From a virus, in IMG/VR virus record IMGVR_UViG_3300037467_000284, positions 1 to 64,000 of that record: DNA of 64,000 nt; one strand, 5' to 3'. Under the pieces are notes generated by a model, which saw nothing but the letters and a program-made list of their open reading frames with translations, did no database searches and was not told the origin of the DNA. The translations under genes and the position numbers were made by a program. Below, piece after piece: positions 1,285 to 53,065 of this stretch. Each line of letters begins with the position of its first letter. Positions within the stretch are counted from its first letter, which is position 1.

Positions 1285-1308
1285 TCTTGTGTACTCCTGA
1301 AAATTCAT

Positions 1309-1337
1309 AGTGTACACTACGTACCTTCATTTGTCAA
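1309..1337 (-). promoter_or_regulatory. sigma70-type promoter, leftward
   Basis: Minus strand reads TTGACA (1337-1332), 17 nt, TACACT (1314-1309). It is followed by AGGAG and the ATG at 1284. Confidence 0.6.
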
Positions 1338-1421
1338 CTTTACGCAACAGTACATTATATATTTCTTATATAATACTTTACTTATATATTTTATAGTAGT
1401 ACTCTTAATTACTTATTGACT

Positions 1422-1440
1422 CCCCTCCTTACCGGAGGGG
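1422..1440. other. GC-rich hairpin inside an AT-rich control region
   Basis: CCCCTCC-TTACC-GGAGGGG is embedded in TTATATA-rich DNA between divergent promoters. There is no clear U-tract on either strand. Confidence 0.5.
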
Positions 1441-1498
1441 GTCTATAATTTATATATTCTATAGTACTCCCTCACTCGCTAGCGCTCGTTCGGTCGTT

Positions 1499-1527
1499 AT
1501 GTTACACTACGTTCTTTCGTTTGTCAA
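1499..1527 (-). promoter_or_regulatory. sigma70-type promoter, leftward (upstream member of a tandem pair)
   Basis: Minus strand reads TTGACA (1527-1522), 17 nt, TAACAT (1504-1499). The spacer ends in ACGTAGTG. It transcribes the ORF-free AT-rich segment 1490-1340. Confidence 0.5.
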
Positions 1528-1554
1528 CTTTAGAGCGTAAGCAACAAAGAAGTG

Positions 1555-1583
1555 TTGACAGAAGTCTCTTGACCTTGTACAAT
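1555..1583 (+). promoter_or_regulatory. sigma70-type promoter, rightward
   Basis: TTGACA (1555-1560), 17 nt, TACAAT (1578-1583), 30 nt upstream of the ATG at 1613. Confidence 0.65.
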
Positions 1584-1612
1584 GTGTATATTCTAAAGAA
1601 TAGGAGTAGTAA

Positions 1613-1858
1613 ATGAACTTCAGACCTAAGCAGTACTACGTAACTAAGCGGAATGAAGCCGCTGTAGAAGCAGCGGACAATACGCTCAATGTCTACTTTC
1701 GCAAGAACCTCACGGAGCTTGGTCACATCAAGGTAGGCAACTGTGCTTCGCACAAGGAAGCAATCTTGGCCGTCAAGGAGGCTCTGGTAGCCGAAGGCGA
1801 TGGCTTGCACAACAAGGCCGTTCTGGTCGCAATCAAAGGAGGAAAAATTGCAAACTGA
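1613..1858 (+). CDS. hypothetical protein
   Basis: 81 aa with an AGGAG RBS. It is the first gene after promoter 1555-1583. Confidence 0.6.
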   Translation: MNFRPKQYYVTKRNEAAVEAADNTLNVYFRKNLTELGHIKVGNCASHKEAILAVKEALVAEGDGLHNKAVLVAIKGGKIAN

Positions 1859-2138
1859 ATTTTTTGATATCGTGGAACACAATCTTGCTTCTTTCGCAAA
1901 AGAACTGGAGAGCAAGCTGCTCGACGGTTGGCAAATAAGCAAGACCAATCCGGGAGATGTCGTAGGGTTTTACGGTGGCACGTTCACTATCTCCCTCTTC
2001 CGCAATTACGAGACTGTTCAGCGGCTCCGCAGTCGAGTTGAAGGCGTTCAAGAAGCCCCGAAACTCTCCCGTGGAGAGAGCCTTGCGAGGGCACGAGCTG
2101 CAAAAGCTGACAAGAAATCAACGGGAAAAGCTGCTTGA
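1848..2138 (+). CDS. hypothetical protein
   Basis: TTG start 5 nt after AAGGAGG (1836-1842). It overlaps the end of the previous gene. The ORF-track form 1800-2138 has no RBS. Confidence 0.45.
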   Translation: MQTEFFDIVEHNLASFAKELESKLLDGWQISKTNPGDVVGFYGGTFTISLFRNYETVQRLRSRVEGVQEAPKLSRGESLARARAAKADKKSTGKAA

Positions 2139-2267
2139 CTCGCAATTGGTGCGAGGAAACAACACTTTCAGATAATCACGTTCAGTTTTTGTTCGCAAAC
2201 ACGCATAATGCTGATCAGCGGCAACACGCCGCAGAACGAACTGACAATACCAAGGAGAAATTTTCGT

Positions 2268-2648
2268 ATGAGCACCACTGCCCTGTCTATGCTGCGTCAC
2301 CACCTGAAGTCGAACCTGTTCCACATCAACTTCCTGCAAGACGAAATTCGTGCAGCTACGTGGGAAATTACGCAGTTCTACAACGCTAACAATCCGGAGG
2401 GGGCTTACTACGAAGAGCGCGACCGTGCCAAGCTGCGTAAGCAACTTGCCAAGCTGGTAGATATGCAGAAACGTATCAAGGTAGAAATCGCTGCCATCTT
2501 CCGTAACGAGCGTATCCAGCGCAAGTACGTAAAGGTGTTTGGCAAGCTGCCGCAGCAGCAGATCGCTACTTCGCACGAGCAAGAAGCGATGCTCGACCAA
2601 CTGTTGAAAGAAAAGTCGGCTTCGGAAGCTCTCGCAATCAGCGAGTAA
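2268..2648 (+). CDS. hypothetical protein (coiled-coil-like)
   Basis: ATG at 2268 preceded by AAGGAG. The longer track ORF from 2208 lacks an RBS. Confidence 0.55.
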   Translation: MSTTALSMLRHHLKSNLFHINFLQDEIRAATWEITQFYNANNPEGAYYEERDRAKLRKQLAKLVDMQKRIKVEIAAIFRNERIQRKYVKVFGKLPQQQIATSHEQEAMLDQLLKEKSASEALAISE

Positions 2649-2655
2649 AAAGTAC

Positions 2656-2684
2656 TTGACCGTCTGCATTTTGTACGGCACAAT
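2656..2684 (+). promoter_or_regulatory. sigma70-type promoter
   Basis: TTGACC (2656-2661), 17 nt, CACAAT (2679-2684), upstream of the recombinase gene. Confidence 0.5.
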
Positions 2685-2716
2685 CCTCCTATCGAACTCA
2701 TCCGGCAGGAGGCAAT

Positions 2717-3385
2717 GTGAAAAAGATCATCGGCTACACCCGCGTATCGACCAAAGAGCAGGGCAAGACCCGGAACGGTCTTGAAGCGCAGGCGGAAGCT
2801 ATTCGGCTGTTCTGCCAGTACAACGGTTACGAATTGATCGAGATTGCTGAGGAAGTGCAATCCGGTGCTGACGATGATCGTCCTGTCCTCGCTGCCGTGA
2901 CAAAGCGTGCCAAAATGCTTGGAGCATTTGTGGTCGTGAACAAGCTAGATCGTTTGTCGCGTAGTGCCATCTTCATCCTGAACTACGTTCAGCAAAACTC
3001 AAAGTTCATCGTGACGATGCTTGGCGAGGACGTTGACCCGTTCATGCTGCACATATACGCGGGTTTGGCCGAGAAAGAGCGGCTGATGATTTCCGACCGG
3101 ACCCGCGCTGGTCTTCAGGCCAAGAAAGCCCGTGGCGAGGCTCTAGGGGCGTCCAAAGACGTTCTTGCGAGGGCTACGACCAACTCGCACATCACGATCA
3201 AGGCCAACGCTGACGCTTTCGCTGAACGCCTGAAGCCGATGATTAGCCGGATGCTCGCAGCCGGGATGTCGTATCGGGCCATCGCAGAAGAATTAAACAG
3301 CACTGGGACCAAGACAGTCCGGGGCGGCAACTGGCACGCCAGTTCCGTGAGCAATCTCGTTGAACGTTTGGCTACGGAGGCTTAA
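2717..3385 (+). CDS. serine recombinase (resolvase/invertase family)
   Basis: GTG start after GGAGG. The N-terminus MKKIIGYTRVSTKEQ is the catalytic-serine motif of resolvases. The C-terminus has an HTH-like segment, GMSYRAIAEELN. Confidence 0.8.
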   Translation: MKKIIGYTRVSTKEQGKTRNGLEAQAEAIRLFCQYNGYELIEIAEEVQSGADDDRPVLAAVTKRAKMLGAFVVVNKLDRLSRSAIFILNYVQQNSKFIVTMLGEDVDPFMLHIYAGLAEKERLMISDRTRAGLQAKKARGEALGASKDVLARATTNSHITIKANADAFAERLKPMISRMLAAGMSYRAIAEELNSTGTKTVRGGNWHASSVSNLVERLATEA

Positions 3386-3616
3386 ATGTGGTTTGGAACA
3401 TATTGCCTTGACCTATACTGCGACAATAGCGGTCCCGCAAGGGATGGGGCGACAATGGAGAACTATGACGGCATCCATGCCTTCCAAGAGTTCCCAAAGC
3501 AATACACGGGGGAGCACGGGTCTGCTTGCCGTGCTCAGGCCCGTAAGGACGGGTGGATCATACGTGGCGACGGTTCGGCTATCTGTCCTAAGTGCAGCGG
3601 CAAAACACGGAAGTAA
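3386..3616 (+). CDS. hypothetical protein with C-terminal zinc-ribbon-like motif
   Basis: 76 aa with its ATG directly after the recombinase stop. The protein ends in ...CPKCSGKTRK. Confidence 0.5.
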   Translation: MWFGTYCLDLYCDNSGPARDGATMENYDGIHAFQEFPKQYTGEHGSACRAQARKDGWIIRGDGSAICPKCSGKTRK

Positions 3617-3662
3617 AGTTCGCCGGGAGTGTCCCGGCTCTTTAACCAAAAGGAGAAGAAAA

Positions 3663-4214
3663 ATGAGTGAAATTGACATGATCATCATCGCAGGCGCGGC
3701 AGGTTTCGCGTTGGCTGCACACGCGGGCCAGAAACGCAAATATACTGGCGAGGACTATTACCATCACCCGAAGCGTGTGTGCGAGACTCTTGAGGCTCAC
3801 GGTCACAAAGATGTCGAAACTCTGGTTGCGGGCCTCCTACACGATGTCGTAGAGGACACGCACGTTACGCAAGAACAGATAATCGAGTATTTCGGCAACG
3901 ATGTTGCGGTTCTCGTGGGCTGGTTGACGAAGACTGGATGGGACGCACCGGCTCCTGCTCGTGCAGAGCGCAAAGCGTTCGAAGTGGCACGCCTGAAGGA
4001 TGCACCGTCCAAGGTAAAGACGATCAAGCTGGCGGATCGGTTGGATAACCTGCCGTCCGTGATCGAGCACGATCCGAAATTCGCTCCCGTCATCGTTGCG
4101 GAGACGCGTGAGCTGCTGGACGGAGCCCTCGTCGGCGGTTGCCCGAAGCTCTGGGCGAAGGTAGACGCGATTGTACGCGAATTTCAATCGAAACAGCTTG
4201 ACAAGGTAGCGTAA
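3663..4214 (+). CDS. RelA/SpoT-type HD-domain small alarmone hydrolase ((p)ppGpp/(p)ppApp hydrolase-like)
   Basis: ATG at 3663 after AAGGAG. HAGQKRKYTGEDYYHHP...AGLLHDVVEDT matches the SpoT/Mesh1 hydrolase HD signature. The 183-aa single-domain protein has no synthetase part. Confidence 0.75.
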   Translation: MSEIDMIIIAGAAGFALAAHAGQKRKYTGEDYYHHPKRVCETLEAHGHKDVETLVAGLLHDVVEDTHVTQEQIIEYFGNDVAVLVGWLTKTGWDAPAPARAERKAFEVARLKDAPSKVKTIKLADRLDNLPSVIEHDPKFAPVIVAETRELLDGALVGGCPKLWAKVDAIVREFQSKQLDKVA

Positions 4215-4227
4215 GTAGTACTACAAT
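4198..4227 (+). promoter_or_regulatory. sigma70-type promoter
   Basis: TTGACA (4198-4203), 18 nt, TACAAT (4222-4227), inside the 3' end of the HD gene and 30 nt before the rtcB start. Confidence 0.6.
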
Positions 4228-4256
4228 CCTACCTGTCAACTAACTAAGGAGAACAT

Positions 4257-5504
4257 ATGCAAGAACGTACCACTGCGAAGATGGTTATCCCTTCGGAAAA
4301 CGGCTCCCGTCCCATCAAGGTTTGGACGACCGATGTCGAAGACGAAGCCATGACGCAACTCAAGAACCTCTCCCGCCTGCCCTTCATTGCGAAGGAAGGT
4401 GTAGCCTGTATGCCGGATGTCCACGCGGGCAAGGGTAGCACCGTAGGAACCGTTATCGCCACGGATAAGGCGATCATCCCGGCTGCGGTAGGTGTGGACA
4501 TTGGTTGCGGCATGGTGGCTACCCGCCTGTCGCTGAAGGCGCACCAGTTGCCGGATTCCCTAGCACGGATTCGTTCGGAAATCGAACGTGTCGTACCGAT
4601 GGGTACTGGCGGCAACCACACTGCCAAGACCGGCCTGATGAACGAGAACGGCTCTCGTATGGGTCCGTACGGATGGCTGGTCCACTCGCTGCGTAACAAC
4701 GATGCGGTGTCGAAAGTCTTCGGTGGGGACGCTGGTAAAGCTGGCGAAAAGGCGTGGAGCCAAGTCGGTACTCTGGGATCGGGGAACCACTTCATCGAAA
4801 TCTGTATCGACCAGAACGACGATGTGTGGGTAATGCTGCACTCCGGTTCCCGTGGCATCGGCAACATGATCGGTCAGTACTACATCGACAAGGGTAAGGA
4901 ACTGATGGAGCAGTTTCACATTACGCTACCTGATGGCGACCTCGCCTACCTGCCGCAAGGGACCGACCTGTTCGAAGACTACGTAGCTGCCGTCCAGTGG
5001 GCGCAGGACTACGCGATGGAAAATCGCAAGTGGATGCTGAAAGCAGTGCTCGATGTGCTTCGCCGTGAGATTCCGGTAACGTTCGGTATCACGGAAGAGG
5101 CAATCAACTGCCACCACAACTACGTAGTACAGGAGAACCATTTTGGAAAGAACCTGTGGATCACTCGCAAAGGCGCTATCCGTGCCCGTGAAGGCGATCT
5201 GGGCATCATTCCGGGCTCGATGGGAGCAAAGAGCTACATCGTACGCGGGAAAGGCAACAAAGAGTCCTACTGCTCGTGCTCGCACGGGGCGGGGCGTAAG
5301 ATGTCACGGTCGAAGGCCCGTCAGATGTTCACTGTCGCTGACCTGAAGGCACAAACGCAGGGCGTAGAGTGCCGTAAGGACGATGCAGTACTTGACGAGA
5401 TTCCGGGCTCGTACAAAGACATTGACGTAGTGATGGAAAACCAGAAGTCTTTGGTTGAAGTTGTACATACGCTACGCGCTGTTCTTTGCTGCAAGGGTGC
5501 GTGA
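4257..5504 (+). CDS. rtcB: RtcB-family RNA 3'-phosphate ligase
   Basis: 415 aa with an AAGGAG RBS. GSGNHFIE, HSGSRGIGN, CHHNY and CSHGAGR motifs are characteristic of RtcB. Confidence 0.9.
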   Translation: MQERTTAKMVIPSENGSRPIKVWTTDVEDEAMTQLKNLSRLPFIAKEGVACMPDVHAGKGSTVGTVIATDKAIIPAAVGVDIGCGMVATRLSLKAHQLPDSLARIRSEIERVVPMGTGGNHTAKTGLMNENGSRMGPYGWLVHSLRNNDAVSKVFGGDAGKAGEKAWSQVGTLGSGNHFIEICIDQNDDVWVMLHSGSRGIGNMIGQYYIDKGKELMEQFHITLPDGDLAYLPQGTDLFEDYVAAVQWAQDYAMENRKWMLKAVLDVLRREIPVTFGITEEAINCHHNYVVQENHFGKNLWITRKGAIRAREGDLGIIPGSMGAKSYIVRGKGNKESYCSCSHGAGRKMSRSKARQMFTVADLKAQTQGVECRKDDAVLDEIPGSYKDIDVVMENQKSLVEVVHTLRAVLCCKGA

Positions 5505-5740
5505 TGAAAGCCGCCACCATAATAGCGTGGGCTGCGATCATTGGTCTCTTCGCCGGGGTCATCTACGGCCTTAACATGAACGCTGTCCGGGCTGCGGAGC
5601 AGAAGGAGAGGATTCAGGCATTCTCTGCTAAGTTCCACTGCCAGCCGGAAGGCTACGTAGCAACGCGGAACGAGCCAGTCCGTACCTACCGCTGCGACAA
5701 CGGTTTGTTTGTCGCTAACGACATGAAGGACACCAAATGA
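5504..5740 (+). CDS. small membrane protein
   Basis: ATG overlaps the rtcB stop (TGATG). It has an N-terminal hydrophobic helix. Confidence 0.55.
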   Translation: MKAATIIAWAAIIGLFAGVIYGLNMNAVRAAEQKERIQAFSAKFHCQPEGYVATRNEPVRTYRCDNGLFVANDMKDTK

Positions 5741-5946
5741 TGATTGCCCCAGTAGCAGCGGTGATTGTTGCGAACAACGCAGCTACCCGCAGGTACGGTT
5801 ACGGACGCGTTGCTGCTGGCAAGGCCAACATGGTCGGTGGAGCTGGGACCGACCCAGACAACATCGGCTGGTCGATTGTCTTTGGCCTGCTTGCTGGCTT
5901 CGCTATTGTAGCGGTAATCTTCGTAGCAGCAGCTTTGACGAAATAA
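5737..5946 (+). CDS. small membrane protein
   Basis: 69 aa with an ATGA overlap with the upstream gene. It has two hydrophobic segments. Confidence 0.55.
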   Translation: MMIAPVAAVIVANNAATRRYGYGRVAAGKANMVGGAGTDPDNIGWSIVFGLLAGFAIVAVIFVAAALTK

Positions 5947-5957
5947 GGAGGGGAGGT

Positions 5958-6215
5958 ATGGTGTCAATCGAGTACAAAGGAACGTTCGCTGCTAAGGGTA
6001 GCGAACTGTACAAAGCCATTACGGAGAAACGCCCAGACGATGCTAAACGCATCTATGCGGAGACGACATCTCGTATGTACGCTCTGCTGAATAAGCTGGC
6101 TGTCCCTCGTGCCATCTTCGAGCTAGACAAGGAAGGGAAGGCTACGGGCAAATGGCATATCGAGTCGGCTGACGCCTCCTACGACAACAACGGACGCTTC
6201 AAGGAGAAGAAATGA
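5958..6215 (+). CDS. hypothetical protein
   Basis: 85 aa with a GGAGGGGAGG RBS. Confidence 0.6.
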   Translation: MVSIEYKGTFAAKGSELYKAITEKRPDDAKRIYAETTSRMYALLNKLAVPRAIFELDKEGKATGKWHIESADASYDNNGRFKEKK

Positions 6216-6535
6216 AATACGAGCTAGGACAAAAGCTGGAAATCCATAGCCTACCTAATATTGCCGAGCTTCCTAGCTTGAATGGTAGCATTGTCTTCGT
6301 AAAGTCCCTTCCGGGAACCCATGCCGTCTTCACCGGGGCTTACGGAGTGCTTACGAAGGAAGGCAAGATCGAGTGGGTTGCAGAACGCTACCTTCGTCCT
6401 TACCCCCCAGAACTACCGAATGGACGCGGAGACACCGACAATAAGAGTACGTGGGAAGAGTTTCGTAAGGCTACCAACCTGTCTACGGAACAGATGGACC
6501 GTATTCGTGGCTTGAACTCCAACCCGGACTACTGA
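6212..6535 (+). CDS. hypothetical protein
   Basis: 107 aa with an ATGA overlap with the previous gene. Confidence 0.6.
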   Translation: MKYELGQKLEIHSLPNIAELPSLNGSIVFVKSLPGTHAVFTGAYGVLTKEGKIEWVAERYLRPYPPELPNGRGDTDNKSTWEEFRKATNLSTEQMDRIRGLNSNPDY

Positions 6536-6536
6536 C

Positions 6537-6737
6537 ATGGTAGAACGAGAGGAATACAACTACGAAGCACACAATTTCAGCCTTCGTATTGGAGGAAAGC
6601 AATACTGCGTCAAGTGTGGCCTGTTCGGCCTGAACAATGCGTTCTCCGACTGGGCTGTGCGGATGGGATGTAATCACCGGGATCATCCCTCCTACGCTAA
6701 CAAGCGTTACGACACTACCAAACTGCCCGGATTTTAA
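6537..6737 (+). CDS. hypothetical Cys-containing small protein
   Basis: 66 aa starting 1 nt after the previous stop. It contains CVKC...C..H. Confidence 0.5.
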   Translation: MVEREEYNYEAHNFSLRIGGKQYCVKCGLFGLNNAFSDWAVRMGCNHRDHPSYANKRYDTTKLPGF

Positions 6738-6753
6738 CCAAGGAGGGAAACAA

Positions 6754-7083
6754 GTGAAGATCAAATGGGATACTAGCAGCAGTATTTACGAAGTAATGAA
6801 GGGAAGCAGAGGGGATTTCGTGTCCCTGCTCGTGCTGGATCGTGGAGACTCTGGGGTAAAAGAGGCGGGATACGTCTACAAAGACTACTGCGGGAAAGCC
6901 GATCTTGATGCATGGATTGACTCCGGGAGTGTCATTGTTCTGGACGTTCTGGACGAACAGAAGAATGAATCTGCTCCCGAATTCCTCAAAGTGGGCGTGG
7001 ACAGCTCTGAACTGGAGAAAGCCCTTACTATGGCGAAGGAACTGGAAGCAACGTTGCTCCGAATCAAGAGCATGTTCGCATGA
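6754..7083 (+). CDS. hypothetical protein
   Basis: GTG at 6754 preceded by AAGGAGGG. The track ORF from 6637 overlaps the previous gene and has no RBS. Confidence 0.5.
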   Translation: MKIKWDTSSSIYEVMKGSRGDFVSLLVLDRGDSGVKEAGYVYKDYCGKADLDAWIDSGSVIVLDVLDEQKNESAPEFLKVGVDSSELEKALTMAKELEATLLRIKSMFA

Positions 7084-7177
7084 CATAGCTCAATGACAAC
7101 TTATGTTGTCGATGTACTATGTGTTCATGGCATCCCGTTCATTGCGTCCGGGAGCCAAGAAAGGAGGCCGTCAACCT

Positions 7178-7264
7178 GTGAGCCGTATAATCGCTGTTGG
7201 CAGTGCAATCTCGCTTCTCCTGCTGCTTGGCGTGCTGGCTGCTGCAATCCGGTACGCTTCGTAG
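7178..7264 (+). CDS. possible 28-aa hydrophobic peptide
   Basis: GTG start 8 nt after AAGGAGG. Product MSRIIAVGSAISLLLLLGVLAAAIRYAS. Below the ORF-track cutoff and found manually. Confidence 0.3.
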   Translation: MSRIIAVGSAISLLLLLGVLAAAIRYAS

Positions 7265-7312
7265 GACGCTAGCTGTCGCTGTCTCGCAAACACCTCATCT
7301 CGCGTCAACACA

Positions 7313-7340
7313 AGCCCCGCTTCGGCGGGGCTTTCCTTCC
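7313..7340 (+). terminator. rho-independent terminator
   Basis: AGCCCCGC-TTCG-GCGGGGCT followed by TTTCCTTCC. It closes the rightward 1613-7264 cassette. Confidence 0.7.
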
Positions 7341-7359
7341 TTCCCTGTTGAGGCCCATC

Positions 7360-7509
7360 ATGCGCTGGCTATTTGAATTCCTCTGCATTTTCATCCGGGC
7401 CTGCTTGTACACCGCCATCGTTCTGACAGCGGTGGTATTGATATTCTCCCTCATCTTCGCAGTGCTTTGCCCTCACTTCAACATTCTGGACCCCCATTCC
7501 TGCCGCTAG
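7360..7509 (+). CDS. possible 49-aa membrane protein
   Basis: ATG 6 nt after GAGG. The product is hydrophobic. Its stop overlaps the stop of the convergent gene 7506-7778. Found manually. Confidence 0.4.
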   Translation: MRWLFEFLCIFIRACLYTAIVLTAVVLIFSLIFAVLCPHFNILDPHSCR

Positions 7510-7778
7510 GCATTATCGTTCACGCTCTCTACAGTGACAGGCGGAGGCCACGGGGACTCCCTCACTAGCCACATACCTCTTTCCGGATCGAGGTGATACG
7601 CACGGCAAAGCGCTGCCTTGGCGTCTCGTTCGTTACGTCCCCACAGCCTCCCCATCCACCGGGCATTCAGGAAAATATCGTAATGCTTGCCCGGATAGCT
7701 CGTCATTCCTATCCCTCTCGCCATGTCTCCGGCCGCTAGACGGAGCCAGCGGGAGAAATCATCCTCTTGCGTTTCCAT
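7506..7778 (-). CDS. hypothetical protein
   Basis: 90 aa with an AGGGG RBS-like element 6 nt upstream. Confidence 0.5.
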   Translation of the reverse strand: METQEDDFSRWLRLAAGDMARGIGMTSYPGKHYDIFLNARWMGRLWGRNERDAKAALCRAYHLDPERGMWLVRESPWPPPVTVESVNDNA

Positions 7779-7963
7779 TTCAGCCCCTATAAATCAAGAT
7801 AACCCCTTGATTTTAAAAATAAAATTTAAAATTTGCCTATGGCAGCACATTATATCGCCAATGGCGAAATATATCTTGCACCAAAACAGCAGAGTTTGAA
7901 CCGAATTGTCTATGAGAAAGGGCATCCAGGAATGCTCATCTTGAGCAAGAGCGAGGGGTGACT

Positions 7964-8125
7964 TTAACTCCGGAGAATTGCCGCCTTAGCTGCGGTTTCA
8001 AGAGCCACTTTAAGCTCTTTAAGGTCAATAGGATCAGCGTTAAGGAACTCTTCAACGTAAGCCTTGAGAACCTCGACGGAATCTAGATGATCTTCGACAT
8101 TAAAGGGGAGCGTTTCGCCTGCCAT
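7964..8125 (-). CDS. small protein resembling the N-terminal part of COG3636/HigA-like antidote proteins (no HTH part)
   Basis: ATG at 8125 preceded by AGGAGG. FNVEDHLDSVEVLKAYVEEFLNADP...ALETAAKA resembles the F..a.yLDs.E.i.aYL motif of that family. Only 53 aa. The similarity is from memory. Confidence 0.45.
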   Translation of the reverse strand: MAGETLPFNVEDHLDSVEVLKAYVEEFLNADPIDLKELKVALETAAKAAILRS

Positions 8126-8569
8126 GTTGCCTCCTAAAATAAAAATTTTGAGAATGGGCAGCATACCACATTTCCTCGGGTAGCGAGAGGGTTGCTTAAC
8201 GGCCCTTACCTGCCTGAAACATGCCTCTCTGGCTTGCCAGAAATATCCATAGGGCCATTTCTCAGGAGAGATGAGGGAACATACCGGGACAGGCCCAGTG
8301 GGCTCAGAAGGCCGCTATTCGGCTCCTATAGCCTGTGTACAAATTGCTGACGTTCGTTACCATTGTGTACAGCGTCTATACCAGTGTGGATAACATAAGC
8401 TAGACCATAGGCCGAGAAAGCCTCTAGGACCGCATAGGAGAGGCTACAAGGCCCGAACATTGACCTGTCTATGGTTTGACTAGGCCATAGGCCAGAATGA
8501 TCCTGTAGAGCCTCTGGCTCTGGCTGAGCTAGGACACGGACAAATGTCCGTACAGTGCAACAAATGTTT

Positions 8570-8601
8570 GTTTCACGTGAAACACAAGCGCCACAGGCGC
8601 A
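8570..8601 (+). repeat. 32-bp perfect direct repeat, copy 1
   Basis: GTTTCACGTGAAACACAAGCGCCACAGGCGCA. It contains the 14-bp palindrome GTTTCACGTGAAAC and the hairpin GCGCC-ACA-GGCGC. Confidence 0.9.
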
Positions 8602-8689
8602 GAATTCCTGCTAAGAAAGAAGAGTTAAAGAACGTTCGACGGCTTAACCAGCCGCCCCCGATCTGTTTGTAGACACATAACTTTTGAAC

Positions 8690-8721
8690 GTTTCACGTGA
8701 AACACAAGCGCCACAGGCGCA
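8690..8721 (+). repeat. 32-bp perfect direct repeat, copy 2
   Basis: Identical to 8570-8601 and exactly 120 bp downstream. Confidence 0.9.
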
Positions 8722-8954
8722 TTAACATCAAGGGCCATAGGCCCATAACAATCCGCCCGCCTCTGTTATCAGACATAGGGATATGACCATACTGAGCCAT
8801 TGGCTCAGGTGATCAGGTGATATAACGCCATAGGCGATGCCATATAACGTGCCATAGGCACAAAGCCGTTTCAGCCGTTGGCTATATAGCCTTATTCTTT
8901 GCCATAGGCAACTAACATTGTCAATTTTAGAATGTTTCCTCTAGTGCAAAATGG

Positions 8955-8983
8955 TTGACTTTTGGCAAGGTGTATGCTACCCT
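8955..8983 (+). promoter_or_regulatory. candidate sigma70-type promoter inside the hairpin tract
   Basis: TTGACT (8955-8960), 17 nt, TACCCT (8978-8983), the same -10 as promoter 32390-32418. It would transcribe hairpins 8993-9195 toward the hairpin at 9500-9517. Confidence 0.35.
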
Positions 8984-9490
8984 AACCCACGAGTGCCATA
9001 GCACGAGTGGTAATAGAAAGCAAGTACTATTTAGTTATATAGTGCCGTAGGCACAAAACATATGTTATGAGCCTATGGCTCTATACGTATGGTCCCGTAG
9101 GGACAGAGGAACGACTCCCGTATAGGGGAGTCGATAGGGGGAGAGGGATTTGATAGGCCATAGGCCAAGTAGATAGTGTTATGTGCCTATGGCACTAGAG
9201 GGACTGGAGAGACGTTCCACCGGGCAGGATGGCGGGACAATCCTAAAGGGATAATCATGCATTCAGTATGCACGTTTGAATAGAGGCGTTTAGAGCCGTT
9301 TATTTTGATGAGTTGGTATGAGGGTAGCCTAGCACTTGCGTTCGTGCCTTTGTAGCGCCTCTGGTGCGGTCTGAGAGGCATTGGCACATATTCCGCTAGC
9401 CCTGCTATCCAAGGGTATGCCAAAGGACAGGCTATTCCCTGTGTTACTTGAGGACTACTTTAGTAATACTTGAGTTGTCAAGTATTGCAT

Positions 9491-10390: not shown

Positions 10391-10561
10391 TTAGCGGCTG
10401 GCCGGAATTCCGGCTTTACGTGCTTTAGTAATTGCGATCTGTGCGGCACGGTAGGATTTAAAGCGCTTGCCGTGGAAATGCCCGGTGTCGTCCGTTACAT
10501 AGCATTCCGACTTGTTGCAATAGCCGTTGATATACATGCCGTTATAGTAATGCGTGAACAT
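10391..10561 (-). CDS. hypothetical protein (56 aa)
   Basis: Found manually. AAGGAA RBS. Product MFTHYYNGMYINGYCNKSECYVTDDTGHFHGKRFKSYRAAQIAITKARKAGIPASR. Confidence 0.45.
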   Translation of the reverse strand: MFTHYYNGMYINGYCNKSECYVTDDTGHFHGKRFKSYRAAQIAITKARKAGIPASR

Positions 10562-10597
10562 AGTTTGTTCCTTTGGTCAGTGGTTAGAACATCTGTT

Positions 10598-10620
10598 AAT
10601 GCCCTACTTGGTAAGGCATT
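10598..10620 (-). repeat. intercistronic stem-loop family, copy 1
   Basis: Plus strand AATGCC-11 nt-GGCATT followed by GGCTG. It lies between the stop at 10631 and the start at 10561. Confidence 0.7.
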
Positions 10621-10630
10621 GGCTGAGGCT

Positions 10631-10969
10631 CTATTTACGCGGGTACAGGTCGAATGATCCTAGCAATTTATCCTCTCGTCCAAGCTTTGCGATTTCTTCG
10701 CATTGCTCGAATGAATACAGGGCGGATTCGTCGCCGTTTGGCGATATAACGCGGAAGTGCTGGCCGACTTCGATAATCTTGTAATCGTCATGGTTGGCGA
10801 ACAAATCCCTGCCAGCATTGATTGCCGCATTGCCTTGATTGCGGTTTTTCAAGTTGAGCATTGCCGTTATGTTGCCGTCGCCATACTCGCCACTTGCATA
10901 AAGCCGGAATGCCTCCCGGCATACGGATTCGCCATACTTGGCAATTGCCCGTTTCGTGTTTTGGTTCAT
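10631..10969 (-). CDS. hypothetical protein
   Basis: 112 aa with an RBS present. Confidence 0.6.
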   Translation of the reverse strand: MNQNTKRAIAKYGESVCREAFRLYASGEYGDGNITAMLNLKNRNQGNAAINAGRDLFANHDDYKIIEVGQHFRVISPNGDESALYSFEQCEEIAKLGREDKLLGSFDLYPRK

Positions 10970-10972
10970 TTC

Positions 10973-11302
10973 TTATTTCCTTTTCTTTTCAAGTAGCATC
11001 GTTGCCCCGAATTTAATTACCGTATCTTCAGGGTTCCATTCGTAATGCGGTTTGCTGATGACACCATTAATCGAGCGCGATTGCGAATAGTAAAGTTGAT
11101 CCGTCTCGGCGTCCAACACTTCCGCATATGTTGCCCCGTATTTGTTGATTTGCAGATTGCGCATGACGTTTAAGCCAGCTTCGAACAAATCACTTCCGTG
11201 ATTCGTTTTGACAATCTCACCGTTAAACACGTAACGAGTTTTAAGCTTGACTGGTGCATCTTTGGACCGACCAGAGTTCATTACGATTTTCTTGACTTGC
11301 AT
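10973..11302 (-). CDS. hypothetical protein
   Basis: 109 aa with an AAGGGGAAA RBS. Confidence 0.6.
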   Translation of the reverse strand: MQVKKIVMNSGRSKDAPVKLKTRYVFNGEIVKTNHGSDLFEAGLNVMRNLQINKYGATYAEVLDAETDQLYYSQSRSINGVISKPHYEWNPEDTVIKFGATMLLEKKRK

Positions 11303-11346
11303 CTATATTTCCCCTTGGATGATTTGAATAACTCGGCTAAGCCGTC

Positions 11347-11374
11347 AATGAGCACTCGTTATTGAATGCTCATT
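11347..11374 (-). repeat. intercistronic stem-loop family, copy 2
   Basis: Plus strand AATGAGCA-12 nt-TGCTCATT followed by AGCTG. It lies between the stop at 11381 and the start at 11302. Confidence 0.7.
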
Positions 11375-11380
11375 AGCTGG

Positions 11381-11758
11381 TTAGCGTTCCCGCGTTTCCC
11401 ACGCATTACGGGCCAATGGCTCGATATTATTGGCTTTGCAGTTTGCGGAATATGTTGCATATTCCAAGTCAACGAAATCGCCAATTGACCGCGTGAATAC
11501 ATTTGTTCGCAGTGCGTGCAAATACGCTGGCAACAACTCTTGTTCAGTTGCCGTGAGAGTCCAAAGCAGTGATAAGGGCGTTGAACCGTTGTGTTTGAAG
11601 AATTGCCACGCAACGTATCCACGCCTAGCGCATTCGTCATAAGCCGTTTCCAAATGCGCTGCATTGTCGGCATTAGGGTTTAGTTCGAGCTGGGCACGTT
11701 CCCCGGTGGCTGCGGTATATTCGCCTTTTGATGAGCGATTGAAGAATTGAGCATACAT
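11381..11758 (-). CDS. hypothetical protein
   Basis: 125 aa with an RBS present. Confidence 0.6.
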   Translation of the reverse strand: MYAQFFNRSSKGEYTAATGERAQLELNPNADNAAHLETAYDECARRGYVAWQFFKHNGSTPLSLLWTLTATEQELLPAYLHALRTNVFTRSIGDFVDLEYATYSANCKANNIEPLARNAWETRER

Positions 11759-11773
11759 TTTGATTTTTCCTTT

Positions 11774-11980
11774 TCAGAGTGGTACATAACGCTTTGCTGC
11801 CCTACGTGCGCCACTATAGCTTTTCCACGTCCTTACGTCGCCTCCTGTGGTGCGCAAATAGCCGTATTGCGTGCCGATGACGATATATTCATATTCATCA
11901 GCTTTAACGCGAAACTTAGCCACAGTGGGCGACTTAGGCTCTCGGCAACGTGAGTCAATACCATTCTCAAAGACAATCAT
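11774..11980 (-). CDS. hypothetical protein
   Basis: 68 aa with a GGAGGAACAA RBS. Confidence 0.55.
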   Translation of the reverse strand: MIVFENGIDSRCREPKSPTVAKFRVKADEYEYIVIGTQYGYLRTTGGDVRTWKSYSGARRAAKRYVPL

Positions 11981-12009
11981 TTGTTCCTCCGTTTAAAAGT
12001 TAATCCGTT

Positions 12010-12035
12010 AATGCCCACCTTTAATAATGGGCATT
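12010..12035 (-). repeat. intercistronic stem-loop family, copy 3
   Basis: Plus strand AATGCCCA-10 nt-TGGGCATT followed by GGCTG. It lies between the stop at 12048 and the start at 11980. Confidence 0.7.
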
Positions 12036-12047
12036 GGCTGATTAGCT

Positions 12048-12542
12048 TCAATTGTTATAGAAGTAATGCCCATTCGATTCGAAAAACGAATGGCTCAAAT
12101 CCCCGTTCCAATAGTGCTCCCAATCGATATAAGCAAACATTGGGTGACTTTCCTCAATCAAGCCAGTCTCTATTGCCCACTCTTCCGCAAAGTCTTTGCC
12201 GGAGTCGTATTTGCCTCTGTAATTGTCGCGTGCTGTTGCGAAATCACATTCACCGCAATTGGCAATATACGCTGCCCACATTTCCCGGTCATCTTCCTCC
12301 AATGCGGCAAGCTCAAAAGCTTTTTCGTTAATCGATGATTCGCTGATCAGAGCGTCCGGAATGTCTTCCCAATCTTGGAACATGAATTCAGGGTCAGATT
12401 CGTCCGCGTGAATTTCACGGCATTTTTCGTAGAATTCGTCTTTATCGTTGAAGTCTTCCAAATCAAGCCACTCACCTTTCAAGCTGCCTGAATTGTATTT
12501 GGCATAAGTGCCAACATAAACACGCATAGTGTCATTCGCCAT
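12048..12542 (-). CDS. ardA: ArdA-family anti-restriction protein
   Basis: 164 aa and very acidic. RVYVGTYAKYNSGSLKGEWLDLEDF... and the C-terminal ...AYIDWEHYWNGDLSHSFFESNGHYF match the ArdA (type I R-M inhibitor, DNA mimic) pattern. Confidence 0.8.
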   Translation of the reverse strand: MANDTMRVYVGTYAKYNSGSLKGEWLDLEDFNDKDEFYEKCREIHADESDPEFMFQDWEDIPDALISESSINEKAFELAALEEDDREMWAAYIANCGECDFATARDNYRGKYDSGKDFAEEWAIETGLIEESHPMFAYIDWEHYWNGDLSHSFFESNGHYFYNN

Positions 12543-26830: not shown

Positions 26831-27997
26831 ATGAGCAATCGCAAACTGGCATCGATTCGTCGCATCAAGCAACTGCTGCCCATCTCCGGGGCCGATAAAA
26901 TCGAACTGGCCTTGGTCGATGGCTGGCAAGTCGTCGTGAAGAAGGGTGAGTTCAAAGAAAATGAACTCGCTGTGTACTTCGAAATCGACAGCTTTATCCC
27001 GAACAGCATCGCTCCGTTCCTAACGAAAGAAGGTTATCCACCGAAGGAATTCAACGGTGTGAAGGGTGAGCGTCTGAAGACCGTCAAGCTGCGCAAAACA
27101 CTGTCGCAAGGTCTGCTGCTACCTGTGTCGAACTTCCCGTTCATGGCAGGAGAAATTGAAGATGGCGTAGTCTGCGAGGGCTACGACTTGACCGACGAAC
27201 TGCGCGTCCAGAAATGGGAAGCCCCGGAAGAGAAGGCTACCAACAACGGCCCAATGGCTTCCAAGACCCGTTCGTTCCCGTACTTCATCCGCAAGACGGA
27301 TCAGGAGCGAGCGCAGAACTATGGCAAGTTGATCGAACAGAACCTCGACACGGAATTCGAAGTGACCGTGAAAAAGGATGGTAGCTCGATCACTGTGTTC
27401 CGTGTGAACCCGGACAGCGAGTACTACGAGGATGCGAAACGTATGGTGCATGGTAAGCCGTCCCTGTGGCAGCGTATCAAGGCGTTCTTCCAGCGGAAGT
27501 ATGACGAGCCTGTGTACGGCATCTGCTCCCGTAACGTCCTGCTGCCATTCGAAGGCGAAAGCAACTTCCATAAGGCTGCTGCTAAGCTTCTGCCGCACAT
27601 GAAGGTGTACAACGAAGGCTCAGTTGCTATCCAAGCCGAACTGGTAGCCCCTGATATTCAGGGCAACTACGAGAAAGTAGATGGCGTTGAAGTACACATT
27701 TTCGATGTGTTCAACATCGATAAGCAGGAATACATGGTCCCGCGTGACCGTATCAACTTCCTTGGCGTGATGTTCTCGCCCGACAAGGTTCCGCACGCTA
27801 CCATAGTAGACCGTGGTACGCTGCGTAACATCCTTCAACTGAAGGACGGCGAAGATGCCGTAGCGAAGCTGCTAACGTACGCTTCGGGTGAGGGTGACAA
27901 TCCGGGCGTCATGCGTGAAGGTGTTGTCTTCAAGGCAATGGACAAGGACTTCTCGTTCAAGGTGGTATCGAACGAGTACTTGCTAAAGAAGGGCTGA
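26831..27997 (+). CDS. ATP-dependent RNA ligase (DRB0094/Rnl5-like family)
   Basis: N-terminal OB-like segment LASIRRIKQLLPISGADKIELALVDGWQVVVKKGEF and the KxDG motif (VTVKKDGSSITVF). The family assignment is from memory. Confidence 0.7.
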   Translation: MSNRKLASIRRIKQLLPISGADKIELALVDGWQVVVKKGEFKENELAVYFEIDSFIPNSIAPFLTKEGYPPKEFNGVKGERLKTVKLRKTLSQGLLLPVSNFPFMAGEIEDGVVCEGYDLTDELRVQKWEAPEEKATNNGPMASKTRSFPYFIRKTDQERAQNYGKLIEQNLDTEFEVTVKKDGSSITVFRVNPDSEYYEDAKRMVHGKPSLWQRIKAFFQRKYDEPVYGICSRNVLLPFEGESNFHKAAAKLLPHMKVYNEGSVAIQAELVAPDIQGNYEKVDGVEVHIFDVFNIDKQEYMVPRDRINFLGVMFSPDKVPHATIVDRGTLRNILQLKDGEDAVAKLLTYASGEGDNPGVMREGVVFKAMDKDFSFKVVSNEYLLKKG

Positions 27998-32792: not shown

Positions 32793-33929
32793 ATGAGCAA
32801 AGCAACTAGCGAGATTACCCGCCGATTCGTGAATGTGTGGGTTCGCACGCAAGGAACTGACACTGCGGAACTAGAGAAGGCGTTCTTCGTTATGGGATTC
32901 CGCTGGCAGGGGAGCAAGAGGGGGGAGCCCCGCGAGCTTCGCACTCAAGAAAGGCCATCTTACATTCGCACTGAAGACAATTATAGCCTGTACTGGGCGA
33001 GTTGCCCCGGTGCTCGTCCGGAAGACTACGGCTACGATGCAAAGGAAGTGTCTCGTGACGAGGTGCTTGCAGCTGCTGAAGAAGTACGCAAGATCAAGCG
33101 TGCAGAAAGCAAGGCTTCCAAGAAGCGTCGTGCGCAGCGTAGATGGGATGCTACGGCTACCAAGCGTACTACGGAAGTGTGCCCGGTGCGTGAAAACGTT
33201 GTGATCGCTGTGAAACTCAATAACGGCACCGTTGTCACGAAACGTTCAGGCTGGTTCGATTGGGCTACGCGGCATTTAGACCAGAGAGGCAGCAACATCG
33301 CCAGCTACAAAGTGCTGGTTCCGAACAAGCACAAGCCGGAGCCCGTTGAATCAAGTGTAGTGCCACTGGAGTCGATGGTGCAAGCTGTTGCTTGGGATTT
33401 GGGCAAGGGTGTCGCCACTCCGGTACACGACGCTGTTCTCGATACGGACGGCAGCGTGGTAGCGACAGGCGAGTTCGTGAAGCCAGCACTCGACACGACC
33501 GGGCCGCTCGGCACGAATCCGAAGAAACAATATGGTGTGCAGTCGATCCCGTTGAGCTGCTGGAGTAGCTTGGCATCAGCCTACGGCTCTCTGGCCTTCT
33601 ACAACGGAGCGCTGAAGTATGGTAAGGCTAACTACGCAAACACCCCAGTGGAAGCCTCTATCTACATCGATGGAGCTATGCGCCATCTTGCTGCATGGGC
33701 TGCTGGCGAAGAGTTCGATCCGGCGGACGGTGTGCCGAATCTTGGTGGTGTACTAGCGAACATTGCTATCCTACTGGAAGCACGAGCCGCTAATATGCTG
33801 ATTGACGACCGTGCAAAACAGTCAGGCTACCTGAAGGAGCGCGACGAACTGAAAAAGATCGTGAAGCACCTGAACGAACTGCACGCTGGCAAGAATCCGA
33901 AGCACTATACGTTAGAGAAGAAGGAGTAA
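32793..33929 (+). CDS. protein with C-terminal DUF5664-type dATP/dGTP diphosphohydrolase-like domain
   Basis: The C-terminal ...YGVQSIPLSCWSSLASAYGSLAFYNGALKYGKANY...AMRHLAAWAAGEEFDPADGVPNLGG matches my recollection of that domain. The N-terminal roughly 230 aa are unassigned. Confidence 0.55.
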   Translation: MSKATSEITRRFVNVWVRTQGTDTAELEKAFFVMGFRWQGSKRGEPRELRTQERPSYIRTEDNYSLYWASCPGARPEDYGYDAKEVSRDEVLAAAEEVRKIKRAESKASKKRRAQRRWDATATKRTTEVCPVRENVVIAVKLNNGTVVTKRSGWFDWATRHLDQRGSNIASYKVLVPNKHKPEPVESSVVPLESMVQAVAWDLGKGVATPVHDAVLDTDGSVVATGEFVKPALDTTGPLGTNPKKQYGVQSIPLSCWSSLASAYGSLAFYNGALKYGKANYANTPVEASIYIDGAMRHLAAWAAGEEFDPADGVPNLGGVLANIAILLEARAANMLIDDRAKQSGYLKERDELKKIVKHLNELHAGKNPKHYTLEKKE

Positions 33930-41611: not shown

Positions 41612-41640
41612 TTGACAAGTAGTGCTACGTAGTGTAAGAT
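41612..41640 (+). promoter_or_regulatory. sigma70-type promoter
   Basis: TTGACA, 17 nt, TAAGAT. Confidence 0.6.
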
Positions 41641-41984: not shown

Positions 41985-42061
41985 GGGTCGTTAGCTCAGT
42001 GGACAGAGCATCGGTGTTCTAGGCCGATTGGTCGAGGGTTCGAATCCTTCACGACTCACCA
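41985..42061 (+). tRNA. tRNA-Arg (anticodon UCU), CCA encoded
   Basis: Manual cloverleaf:
- acceptor GGGTCGT/ACGACTC;
- D arm GCTC-AGTGGACA-GAGC;
- anticodon stem TCGGT/GCCGA with loop GTTCTAG;
- T arm GAGGG-TTCGAAT-CCTTC;
- discriminator A followed by CCA. Confidence 0.8.
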
Positions 42062-44851: not shown

Positions 44852-45394
44852 ATGGCTAAGAAGGAAGCCCCTAAGACCCGCTGTGGCGGGACGATGACGG
44901 AATCCCAGTACCTAGCGTGGATTCGTTCTGCTCTTCGTTCTAAGTGGCTTCGATGGCAACCCCGTAACGACTGCCTAGCAGCCGCTAGACGGCCTTACAA
45001 GGGTCCGAACGCACGGCAGAAGTGGGAGTACCAGTGTGCGATTTGCAAGGAGTGGTTCGTATCGAAAGAGATGGAGGTTGACCATTATCCGCACGATGCT
45101 GGCTCCATCCTGTCAGTTGAGGACATCGGCCCCTTCGTGGGACGCCTGTACTGCGAGACTGACAATCTCCGGGCAGTGTGCAAGCCTTGCCACAAGATAC
45201 ACACGTACGCCAAGAGCGAAGGGTTGACGTTCGAAGAGGCGAAGCTAGTTAAGAAGGTACTGGAGCTTACCAAGCAACCTACGAAAAAAGTTCTTGAGTT
45301 CCTTGCACAGCATGGGTACAATGGTGACTCTGTAAGTAACGCGACTAAGCGTAAGGAGTTGGTCACGAAAATTTTGAAGGAGAGACATGAGTAA
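44852..45394 (+). CDS. HNH endonuclease
   Basis: CAIC...VDHYPHD...NLRAVCKPCHKIH is an HNH/zinc-finger motif. Confidence 0.75.
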   Translation: MAKKEAPKTRCGGTMTESQYLAWIRSALRSKWLRWQPRNDCLAAARRPYKGPNARQKWEYQCAICKEWFVSKEMEVDHYPHDAGSILSVEDIGPFVGRLYCETDNLRAVCKPCHKIHTYAKSEGLTFEEAKLVKKVLELTKQPTKKVLEFLAQHGYNGDSVSNATKRKELVTKILKERHE

Positions 45395-52840: not shown

Positions 52841-53065
52841 ATGAAAGCTGTCATTAAGAGCCGTAACCAACGTGAAGGTAAATTTGTTCCGGGCTGGTGC
52901 TACAACCCGGCATTCAAGAGGACAGACGCTGGGAAGGTGTTTCCGAAGAAGCGTGCTGGTGCTCACTACGAGCTTCGGAAAGTGATTGGCTATACCGACA
53001 TCGTTGGAAATTTCATTCCCGGCCTCACTTACTTCCGTACCTACCGCGAAGGAGCATTCGAATGA
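52841..53065 (+). CDS. hypothetical protein
   Basis: 74 aa with an AAGGAG RBS. Confidence 0.55.
   Translation: MKAVIKSRNQREGKFVPGWCYNPAFKRTDAGKVFPKKRAGAHYELRKVIGYTDIVGNFIPGLTYFRTYREGAFE

Follow-up and report, generated by a model that had tools for sequence, protein, structure and literature searches.

Two phage small alarmone hydrolases (SAHs), PaSpo of the Salmonella phage SSU5 and PbcSpo of PVP-SE1, neutralise the five toxic small alarmone synthetase (toxSAS) toxins against which they were tested (CapRel, FaRel2, PhRel, PhRel2, and FaRel), and phage SAHs have been proposed as a bypass of alarmone-mediated defence (Jimmy et al., PMC7229694). PaSpo-SSU5 also removes the tRNA modification made by FaRel2 (PMC11245113). 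For phage RtcB proteins, a role in resealing cleaved RNA has already been predicted in the comparative literature (PMC7824862). Genes of both kinds, headed by a small serine recombinase, lie close together in the DNA studied here, positions 1 to 64,000 of the IMG/VR virus record IMGVR_UViG_3300037467_000284 (this whole stretch of 64,000 nucleotides is called the window below). An earlier reading of the sequence (the original prediction) took the three genes for a cassette, possibly mobile or invertible, in which SAH and RtcB might form a functional unit directed against tRNA-targeting immunity. Here, we studied the locus together with its relatives to ask what holds these genes together.

The reading that we favour, with a probability of roughly 0.6, is that recombinase, SAH, and RtcB are separate enzymes that have stayed neighbours by descent in an early operon transcribed by the host RNA polymerase, and that they serve three independent early functions. 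All three genes belong to one rightward early operon headed by a promoter at 1555 (Table 1), and their identities, like those of a second RNA ligase and a tRNA elsewhere in the window, were confirmed exactly where they had been called by open reading frame (ORF) prediction, Pfam, ARAGORN, and Rfam. Known kinds account for every component: the SAH is PaSpo-like, RtcB has many phage counterparts, the recombinase resembles small orphan serine recombinases seen in lytic phages, and the second ligase is an Rnl5 enzyme. The novelty is one of description, namely a long-lived recombinase-SAH(-RtcB) arrangement in a widespread uncultured phage family in which RtcB varies singly. For comparison, of 50,697 phage records, 698 have RtcB, 267 an SAH of the present kind, and 389 a recombinase of the present kind.

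The phage is of the virulent type, with a genome of ~92 kb, and is a member of a widespread uncultured family of ~90 kb metagenomic phages. That the DNA is phage DNA is confirmed by genes for DNA polymerase, primase-helicase, helicase, exonuclease, and DNA ligase, and the window also encodes ribonucleotide reductase, thymidylate synthase, and an endolysin. Among the window ORFs of at least 150 aa that were scanned there is no integrase, repressor, or other lysogeny gene. A megablast search of window positions 2000-8000 against the 50,697 phage records gave zero matches, so that no close cultured relative exists among them; the DNA polymerase is 47-51% identical to the polymerases of Aeromonas phage PAc and of PAK_P3-like phages of Pseudomonas.

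Evidence for the favoured reading comes from the gene order of the relatives. Scanning viral contigs with patterns and looking up exact proteins added 15 distinct genomes to the family, most of them contigs of 88-96 kb (scans with single-protein patterns found five loci with SAH and two with the recombinase; alignments and the protein database reached further). The complete triad is present in 11 genomes (the window, L003, L004, L011, L043, L051/L055, L056, L057, L180, L181, and L183), on one strand and in the order recombinase, zero to three small ORFs, SAH, zero to two small ORFs, RtcB. In the most distant triads the recombinase is 50-57% and the SAH ~45% identical to the window proteins; RtcB is 79-82% identical in close relatives and gives about equally strong matches in the distant triads. 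The small flanking genes are syntenic as well (orf952, orf1613, orf1800, and orf2208 upstream; orf5958, orf6212, and orf6537 downstream), and the order orf1800/orf2208/recombinase/SAH/(RtcB)/orf5958/orf6212/orf6537 is kept in L003, L004, L011, L043, L049, L100, and L101. RtcB is missing from three of these syntenic relatives that keep recombinase and SAH (L049/L050, L100, and L101). In L101 the SAH is only 450 bp from the orf5958 homologue, and in L049 two ORFs stand where RtcB would be (10528-12101), one of 401 aa and a Cys-rich one of 103 aa; the latter ends in CCKGA, the C-terminal residues of RtcB, which is the footprint of a replacement. Another relative, L182, retains the recombinase but lacks both SAH and RtcB within 6 kb of it. 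The intergenic gaps hold small ORFs that differ from genome to genome and are unrelated to one another, for instance a Lar-type gene in L181 or an HNH endonuclease between SAH and RtcB in L005. Recombinase and SAH are the most stable pair. RtcB comes and goes on its own, as one gene, and is dispensable; it would be an accessory gene in the slot downstream of SAH.

The same comparison bears on the proposal that the recombinase makes the block around 1300-7350 mobile or invertible. A serine recombinase with an intact-looking catalytic site does head the block, and its bacterial homologues (36-47% identity) sit in islands, flanked by tyrosine integrases, a transposase, and restriction genes; this census of neighbours indicates only a mobile-island location and is not specific as to function. 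Yet position, order, and strand of the block are constant in all 14 family genomes that carry it, both of its flanks are conserved, and turnover inside it is gene by gene. Searches for recombinase target sites over 1-10 kb and over the whole window showed no inverted or direct repeat pair bracketing the block; they returned copies of a promoter motif (191-213/4197-4219 being among the best pairs) and otherwise only chance-level pairs of 16-26 nt with 71-89% identity. Homing endonuclease genes of the HNH (and GIY-YIG) type are common around the early region, in the window and in relatives (Table 1), and offer another mechanism for the turnover, of which they are a likely driver. Since the block shows no polymorphism of orientation or presence and has no flanking repeats, we read it as vertical synteny, and the idea of a mobile or invertible cassette, for which we see next to no chance, lacks support; on the favoured reading the recombinase does not move or flip the recombinase-SAH-RtcB block.

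Is the adjacency of SAH and RtcB then a functional one? They could form a co-selected two-step tRNA repair module, in which SAH would strip a 3'-pyrophosphate, or lower (p)ppGpp in favour of the GTP-dependent RtcB, and RtcB would reseal the cleaved tRNA. Linkage of the two genes in 11 family genomes across deep SAH divergence is in keeping with this, as is the fact that many jumbo phages carry both genes. Outside the family, what appears to be an independent juxtaposition is seen on an unrelated contig of 107 kb (L058), where the two genes are no more than 1 kb apart: four small ORFs follow the SAH and precede an RtcB (~41% identity) in divergent orientation, and no other gene is in common with the window. 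Looser linkage is found elsewhere: at 43 RtcB loci, an SAH lies 5-7 kb away in Bordetella phage PHB04, in L008, and in the lineage of L012/L014/L040, and the remaining loci outside the family have none. We also scanned with a diverse SAH alignment and obtained 80 viral loci with flanks of up to 10 kb, three in the family and 77 outside it; only 1 of the 77 has RtcB within 10 kb (L103, at 4.2 kb), so that the co-occurrence check speaks against a unit. In the Pseudomonas jumbo phages D6, Psa21, and RVTF4 the two genes are >90 kb apart. Within the family, three syntenic members keep SAH and do without RtcB, and zero to two unrelated ORFs intervene between the genes, compared with four in L058. 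The RtcB-proximal promoter occurs in two of the family genomes examined, the window and L043, both with SAH abutting RtcB. The chemistries, moreover, do not connect, in that a 3'-pyrophosphorylated CCA end offers RtcB no 5'-OH partner. We consider such a module unlikely, and the part of the original prediction that treated SAH and RtcB as a functional unit finds no support, given RtcB loss, variable intervening ORFs, and the rarity of the pairing outside the family.

Reading the triad as neighbours by descent leaves each gene to be judged separately. The recombinase has matches to Resolvase (PF00239, 2.9e-26) and to the start of Recombinase (PF07508, 1.4e-06), and to PHROG families annotated "DNA invertase" (1.5e-36) and "integrase" (1.4e-33). 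Residues R9, S11, D78, R79, R82, E121, R122, and R128 are invariant in 42 homologues, and the catalytic residues are kept in the distant phAPEC8 and Vibrio phage homologues too. An AlphaFold2 model (predicted local distance difference test, pLDDT, 92.3) has a catalytic domain, a long helix E, an extra long helix at 147-181, and a C-terminal helix-turn-helix, and its best Foldseek matches are Bxb1 integrase and gamma-delta resolvase. The protein thus appears, on its sequence, to be a catalytically intact core gene product of the family. With the Gin/Hin invertases and the gamma-delta/Tn3 resolvases it shares the catalytic domain and helix E (Gin is the best PDB sequence match, 3.2e-09). In contrast to them, its C-terminal helix-turn-helix (predicted helices 186-195 and 208-221, preceded by helix 147-181) resembles the beginning of PF07508, the "recombinase domain" of the large enzymes of this class, more than HTH_7. 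A search of 1-10 kb and of the whole 64 kb window, which short degenerate sites could have eluded, gave no convincing cognate pair of res-, gix-, or hix-like sites.

Some small serine recombinases work as integrases, for example that of the filamentous Ralstonia phage RSM, and together with the PHROG "integrase" match this could be taken to mean that the recombinase is an integrase and the phage temperate. However, the protein is not built like a large serine integrase, having 222 aa, covering only positions 10-51 of the 102 of PF07508, and having no zinc-ribbon or coiled-coil domain, and the scanned ORFs include no repressor and nothing else that points to lysogeny. When 185,579 species genomes were searched with the family recombinase alignment, the result was 39 loci, none above 47% identity, and SAH, RtcB, and other genes of the window region are absent from all 39; there is accordingly no sign of a prophage form of the family. 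Further, homologues of full length (~32% identity) lie in early regions of strictly lytic Phapecoctavirus phages. The possibility that the protein is a conventional integrase with an attachment site elsewhere, which had been named as grounds for giving up the cassette, is thus very improbable in its own right.

Among the closest counterparts are these orphan recombinases of ~220 aa in lytic Phapecoctavirus, which resemble the window protein in length, architecture, and catalytic residues. The one of phAPEC8, gp216 (~32% identity over 98% of the recombinase), is annotated as hypothetical and lies among small early genes of a virulent myovirus; it differs in that no SAH or RtcB occurs within 6 kb. 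The retention of an intact-looking small serine recombinase in strictly lytic phages, here and in Phapecoctavirus, raises the question of its role. One could suppose that recombinase and SAH, usually with RtcB, are a co-selected early core and that the recombinase does a non-integrative job during lytic infection, as in phAPEC8-like phages, a view to which we give a small share of the probability. Such a job might be the recombination of sites in a conserved, hairpin-rich non-coding region ~4 kb downstream, the circularisation or resolution of the phage genome, or the rearrangement of host DNA.

The SAH consists of a single HD_4 domain (PF13328, 1.2e-17), the sole domain in 183 aa, with no synthetase domain. 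R25, H35, H60-D61, E64-D65, D125, and N129 are invariant across 34 homologues, and the catalytic residues align to those of its PDB matches Lmo0812, the hydrolase domains of long RelA/SpoT homologue (RSH) proteins, and MESH1. Its closest characterised homologue is PaSpo of SSU5 (SSU5_099; 45% identity over 154 aa, E 1e-33), which is likewise a stand-alone, single-domain HD_4 protein, an orphan lacking a toxSAS partner, and identical in its catalytic motifs; the differences are that the C-terminal 30 residues of the window protein do not align to PaSpo, and that SSU5 is a phage-plasmid whose SAH has neither a recombinase nor an RtcB neighbour. The enzyme would be made early and act as a Mn2+-dependent 3'-pyrophosphohydrolase on (p)ppGpp and (p)ppApp, and, by analogy with PaSpo-SSU5, it may also strip the 3'-pyrophosphate from the CCA ends of toxSAS-modified tRNAs; either action would blunt an alarmone-based or toxSAS-based growth arrest. 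The original prediction suggested that the SAH counters toxSAS-type immunity, an idea that gains support by analogy, since PaSpo neutralises toxSAS toxins and reverses the modification of tRNA. One candidate function was rejected: the HD protein is not an RNA end-healing 2',3'-phosphoesterase serving the Rnl5 ligase, given its RelA/SpoT-type HD_4 domain with a Glu-Asp motif and its grouping with SAHs.

The SAH could equally be thought of as mainly a host-takeover enzyme, which would keep (p)ppGpp low so that synthesis of rRNA, tRNA, and nucleotides continues, and not as a specific anti-toxSAS factor. In related virulent phages SAH is a core gene, and for the Pakpunavirus Adele it has been read as suppressing the stringent response (PMC12846349); among jumbo phages, many carry HD alarmone phosphodiesterases (PMC7824862). 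The window protein is an orphan, the neighbouring recombinase, zinc-ribbon-like ORF, and RtcB having no Pfam match to a RelA_SpoT synthetase domain such as a toxSAS-SAH pair would contain, and no synthetase or toxin gene adjoins it. Its closest matches in PDB searches are the hydrolase domains of long RSH enzymes and Lmo0812. Against this stands the neutralisation of toxSAS toxins by the nearest characterised homologue, PaSpo-SSU5 (PMC7229694), and the two roles are not mutually exclusive. While a plain stringent-response-suppressing role is equally compatible with the data, the stronger claim that host takeover is the main purpose appears to us possible, on the doubtful side.

RtcB carries all the expected motifs (MPDVHAG, GVDIGCGM, GSGNHFIE, MLHSGSRG, CHHNY, and CSHGAGR), and its Asp/Cys/His metal ligands and nucleophile His align to the RtcB proteins of Pyrococcus horikoshii (4dwr) and Thermus (TTHA1785). 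The residues concerned are the D of MPDVHAG, the D and C of GVDIGCGM, the N-H of GSGNHF, the H of LHSGSRG, an H of CHHNY, and the H of CSHGAGR. The best cultured match is gp041 of Bordetella phage PHB04 (phrog_1075, "tRNA splicing ligase"), 67% identical over the full length and with the active-site residues shared; in PHB04 an HD phosphohydrolase gene lies 5 kb from RtcB, on the other strand and beyond the portal gene, and most phage RtcB genes have no SAH nearby. The protein is predicted to reseal RNA ends with a 2',3'-cyclic phosphate or 3'-phosphate to 5'-OH ends in a reaction dependent on GTP and Mn2+, and its substrates would be the ends left by metal-independent ribonucleases such as anticodon nucleases and HEPN RNases. 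The claim that RtcB has its own promoter is borne out by a near-consensus sigma-70 site; the stop codon of SAH (4212-4214) falls inside it, and AAGGAG and the ATG at 4257 come after it.

The second RNA ligase, for which a Naegleria gruberi RNA ligase structure (5cot) gives a match of 4.3e-62, has the domain order of Rnl5 enzymes (the Naegleria gruberi and Deinococcus radiodurans type), an OB fold at the N terminus and then a nucleotidyltransferase domain. It is unlinked to the recombinase-SAH-RtcB block, its neighbours being an AP2-domain protein and a cell-wall hydrolase, and a polynucleotide kinase-phosphatase was found neither beside it nor elsewhere in the window. Its presumed substrates are nicks with 3'-OH and 5'-phosphate ends, so that with RtcB both end chemistries would be covered. 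The tRNA repair enzymes Pnkp and Rnl1 of phage T4 act against PrrC. By analogy, the window would share with T4 a phage-encoded RNA ligation capacity that could restore cleaved tRNA; it differs in that RtcB joins ends directly, without an end-healing step. As for the tRNA-Arg(UCU), an early-type promoter lies ~350 nt upstream of it. In 22 sampled window genes its cognate codon AGA occurs 9 times among 438 Arg codons, or 1.0 time per 1000 codons overall; codon supplementation is therefore a weak explanation for the tRNA, at least as regards early and middle genes, and the rarity of AGA is no proof that the tRNA acts as a decoy or replacement. The wider view of a counter-defence-rich phage, with ArdA and a pair of genes resembling those for NAD+ reconstitution also present, finds support, and a counter-defence reading of SAH and RtcB is plausible.

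Besides the arrangement in L058, several points weigh against the reading of three independent early functions with such roles. The persistence of the triad down to ~45-50% identity of SAH and recombinase, amid turnover of the small ORFs, could reflect co-selection, which is here inseparable from inertia of gene order. The SAH may do no more than suppress the stringent response. The activities of SAH and RtcB are predicted from sequence, and the host may or may not carry toxSAS systems or anticodon nucleases. The literature searched contained no experiment proving that a phage RtcB counters a defence, and deletion of host rtcB was without effect on plating of PAK_P3 (PMC4933390). If the favoured reading is right, an early operon that contains an alarmone hydrolase, and usually RtcB, throughout a phage family strengthens the view that alarmone/toxSAS signalling and RNA cleavage are routine obstacles to phages, with the two countermeasures inherited and lost independently. 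Relatives with and without RtcB lend themselves as natural controls in any test of a counter-defence role of phage RtcB, on which we found no published experiment.

Table 1. Coordinates of features discussed in the text (positions in the window unless a contig is named).
Feature	Position	Strand	Details
Copies of TTGACA-N11-GTAGTGTA	188-212; 1313-1337; 1503-1527; 41612-41636	-; -; -; +	Related site: 4198-4227 (+)
HNH (and GIY-YIG) homing-endonuclease-like genes	223-783; 44852-45394	-; +	Around the early region
Homing-endonuclease-like genes in relatives	L005 7505-7765; L055 696-1253, 3041-3589, 5974-6696		
Divergent leftward promoters	1337-1309; 1527-1499	-	Extended motif
Operon-head promoter-like site	1555-1583	+	Sigma-70 type, TTGACA-17-TACAAT
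Small serine recombinase	2717-3385	+	222 aa; GTG start behind AGGAGG
Cys-rich zinc-ribbon-like ORF	3386-3616	+	76 aa; phrog_926, 8.7e-09
Hairpin downstream of zinc-ribbon-like ORF	3622-3638		
SAH, PaSpo-like	3663-4214	+	183 aa; ATG inside longer frame 3360-4214
RtcB promoter	4198-4227	+	Near-consensus sigma-70, TTGACA-18-TACAAT; 11/12 consensus positions
RtcB RNA ligase	4257-5504	+	415 aa; PF01139, 1.7e-125, profile positions 1-426/426
ArdA antirestriction protein	12048-12542	-	Pfam, 1.9e-25; phrog_2059
Rnl5-type ATP-dependent RNA ligase	26831-27997	+	PHA02142 OB, 1.5e-29 (residues 6-99); RNA_ligase PF09414, 8.1e-15 (175-379)
tRNA-Arg(UCU)	41985-42061	+	Anticodon tct; ARAGORN and Rfam

Several promoters, the divergent leftward ones of the early region among them, form a family with a conserved spacer and an extended -10 element, of which the window holds four exact copies where none is expected by chance (Table 1). 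The longest "inverted repeats" of the window are copies of this motif, such as the pair named above and 183-217/41607-41641. Between recombinase and SAH, the ATG of the zinc-ribbon-like ORF abuts the recombinase stop codon and has GGAGG upstream, so that the two are translationally coupled; the slot is variable, and relatives have no homologue of this ORF there. In L181 the slot is occupied by a Lar-type restriction-alleviation gene (6677-6916; PF14354, 3.3e-09). The zinc-ribbon-like ORF was considered as a Lar homologue and rejected, with a BLASTP E-value of 0.056 against the L181 gene and no Pfam match.

A gene for a TROVE (Ro60-like) RNA-binding protein, with a weak Pfam match, precedes the triad by ~5 kb at 1307-2689 (-) of L057, a distant family member. 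In bacteria, RNA-repair operons link Ro with RtcB. Neither a TROVE gene nor a Y RNA was seen in the window, where Rfam reported no RNA family besides the tRNA; a match to RsmY was dismissed at 19 bits, the gathering threshold being 57.

Window positions 8400-9250, a non-coding region within a gene-poor stretch (8165-9490), are packed with perfect hairpin palindromes of 13 nt. Each has a GC-rich stem of 5 bp and a loop of 3 nt, with the consensus G-N-GCC-ATA-GGC-N'-C, in which stem position 2 varies, always together with its complementary partner. This ~1% of the window holds 11 of its 51 perfect hairpins, and imperfect copies occur there too, as does an exact direct repeat of 32 nt (8570-8601 and 8690-8721). 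The region has no Rfam family match; it may be an origin, a cluster of non-coding RNAs, or a set of sites for a protein or a recombinase. A hairpin-dense gap is present at the syntenic place in at least nine relatives.

Two further observations concern nucleotide metabolism. A 378-aa protein (32793-33929, +) begins with a domain like that of dATP/dGTP diphosphohydrolases (PF18909, 9.3e-17; phrog "dATP/dGTP pyrophosphohydrolase"), and a function in nucleotide pools or DNA modification is possible. A gene resembling phosphoribosyl pyrophosphate (PRPP) synthetase (ribose-phosphate-pyrophosphokinase-like; 52897-53901, +) adjoins a NAMPT-like gene (54436-56061, +), a pairing that recalls the NAD+ reconstitution pathway of Pakpunavirus phages (PMC12846349).

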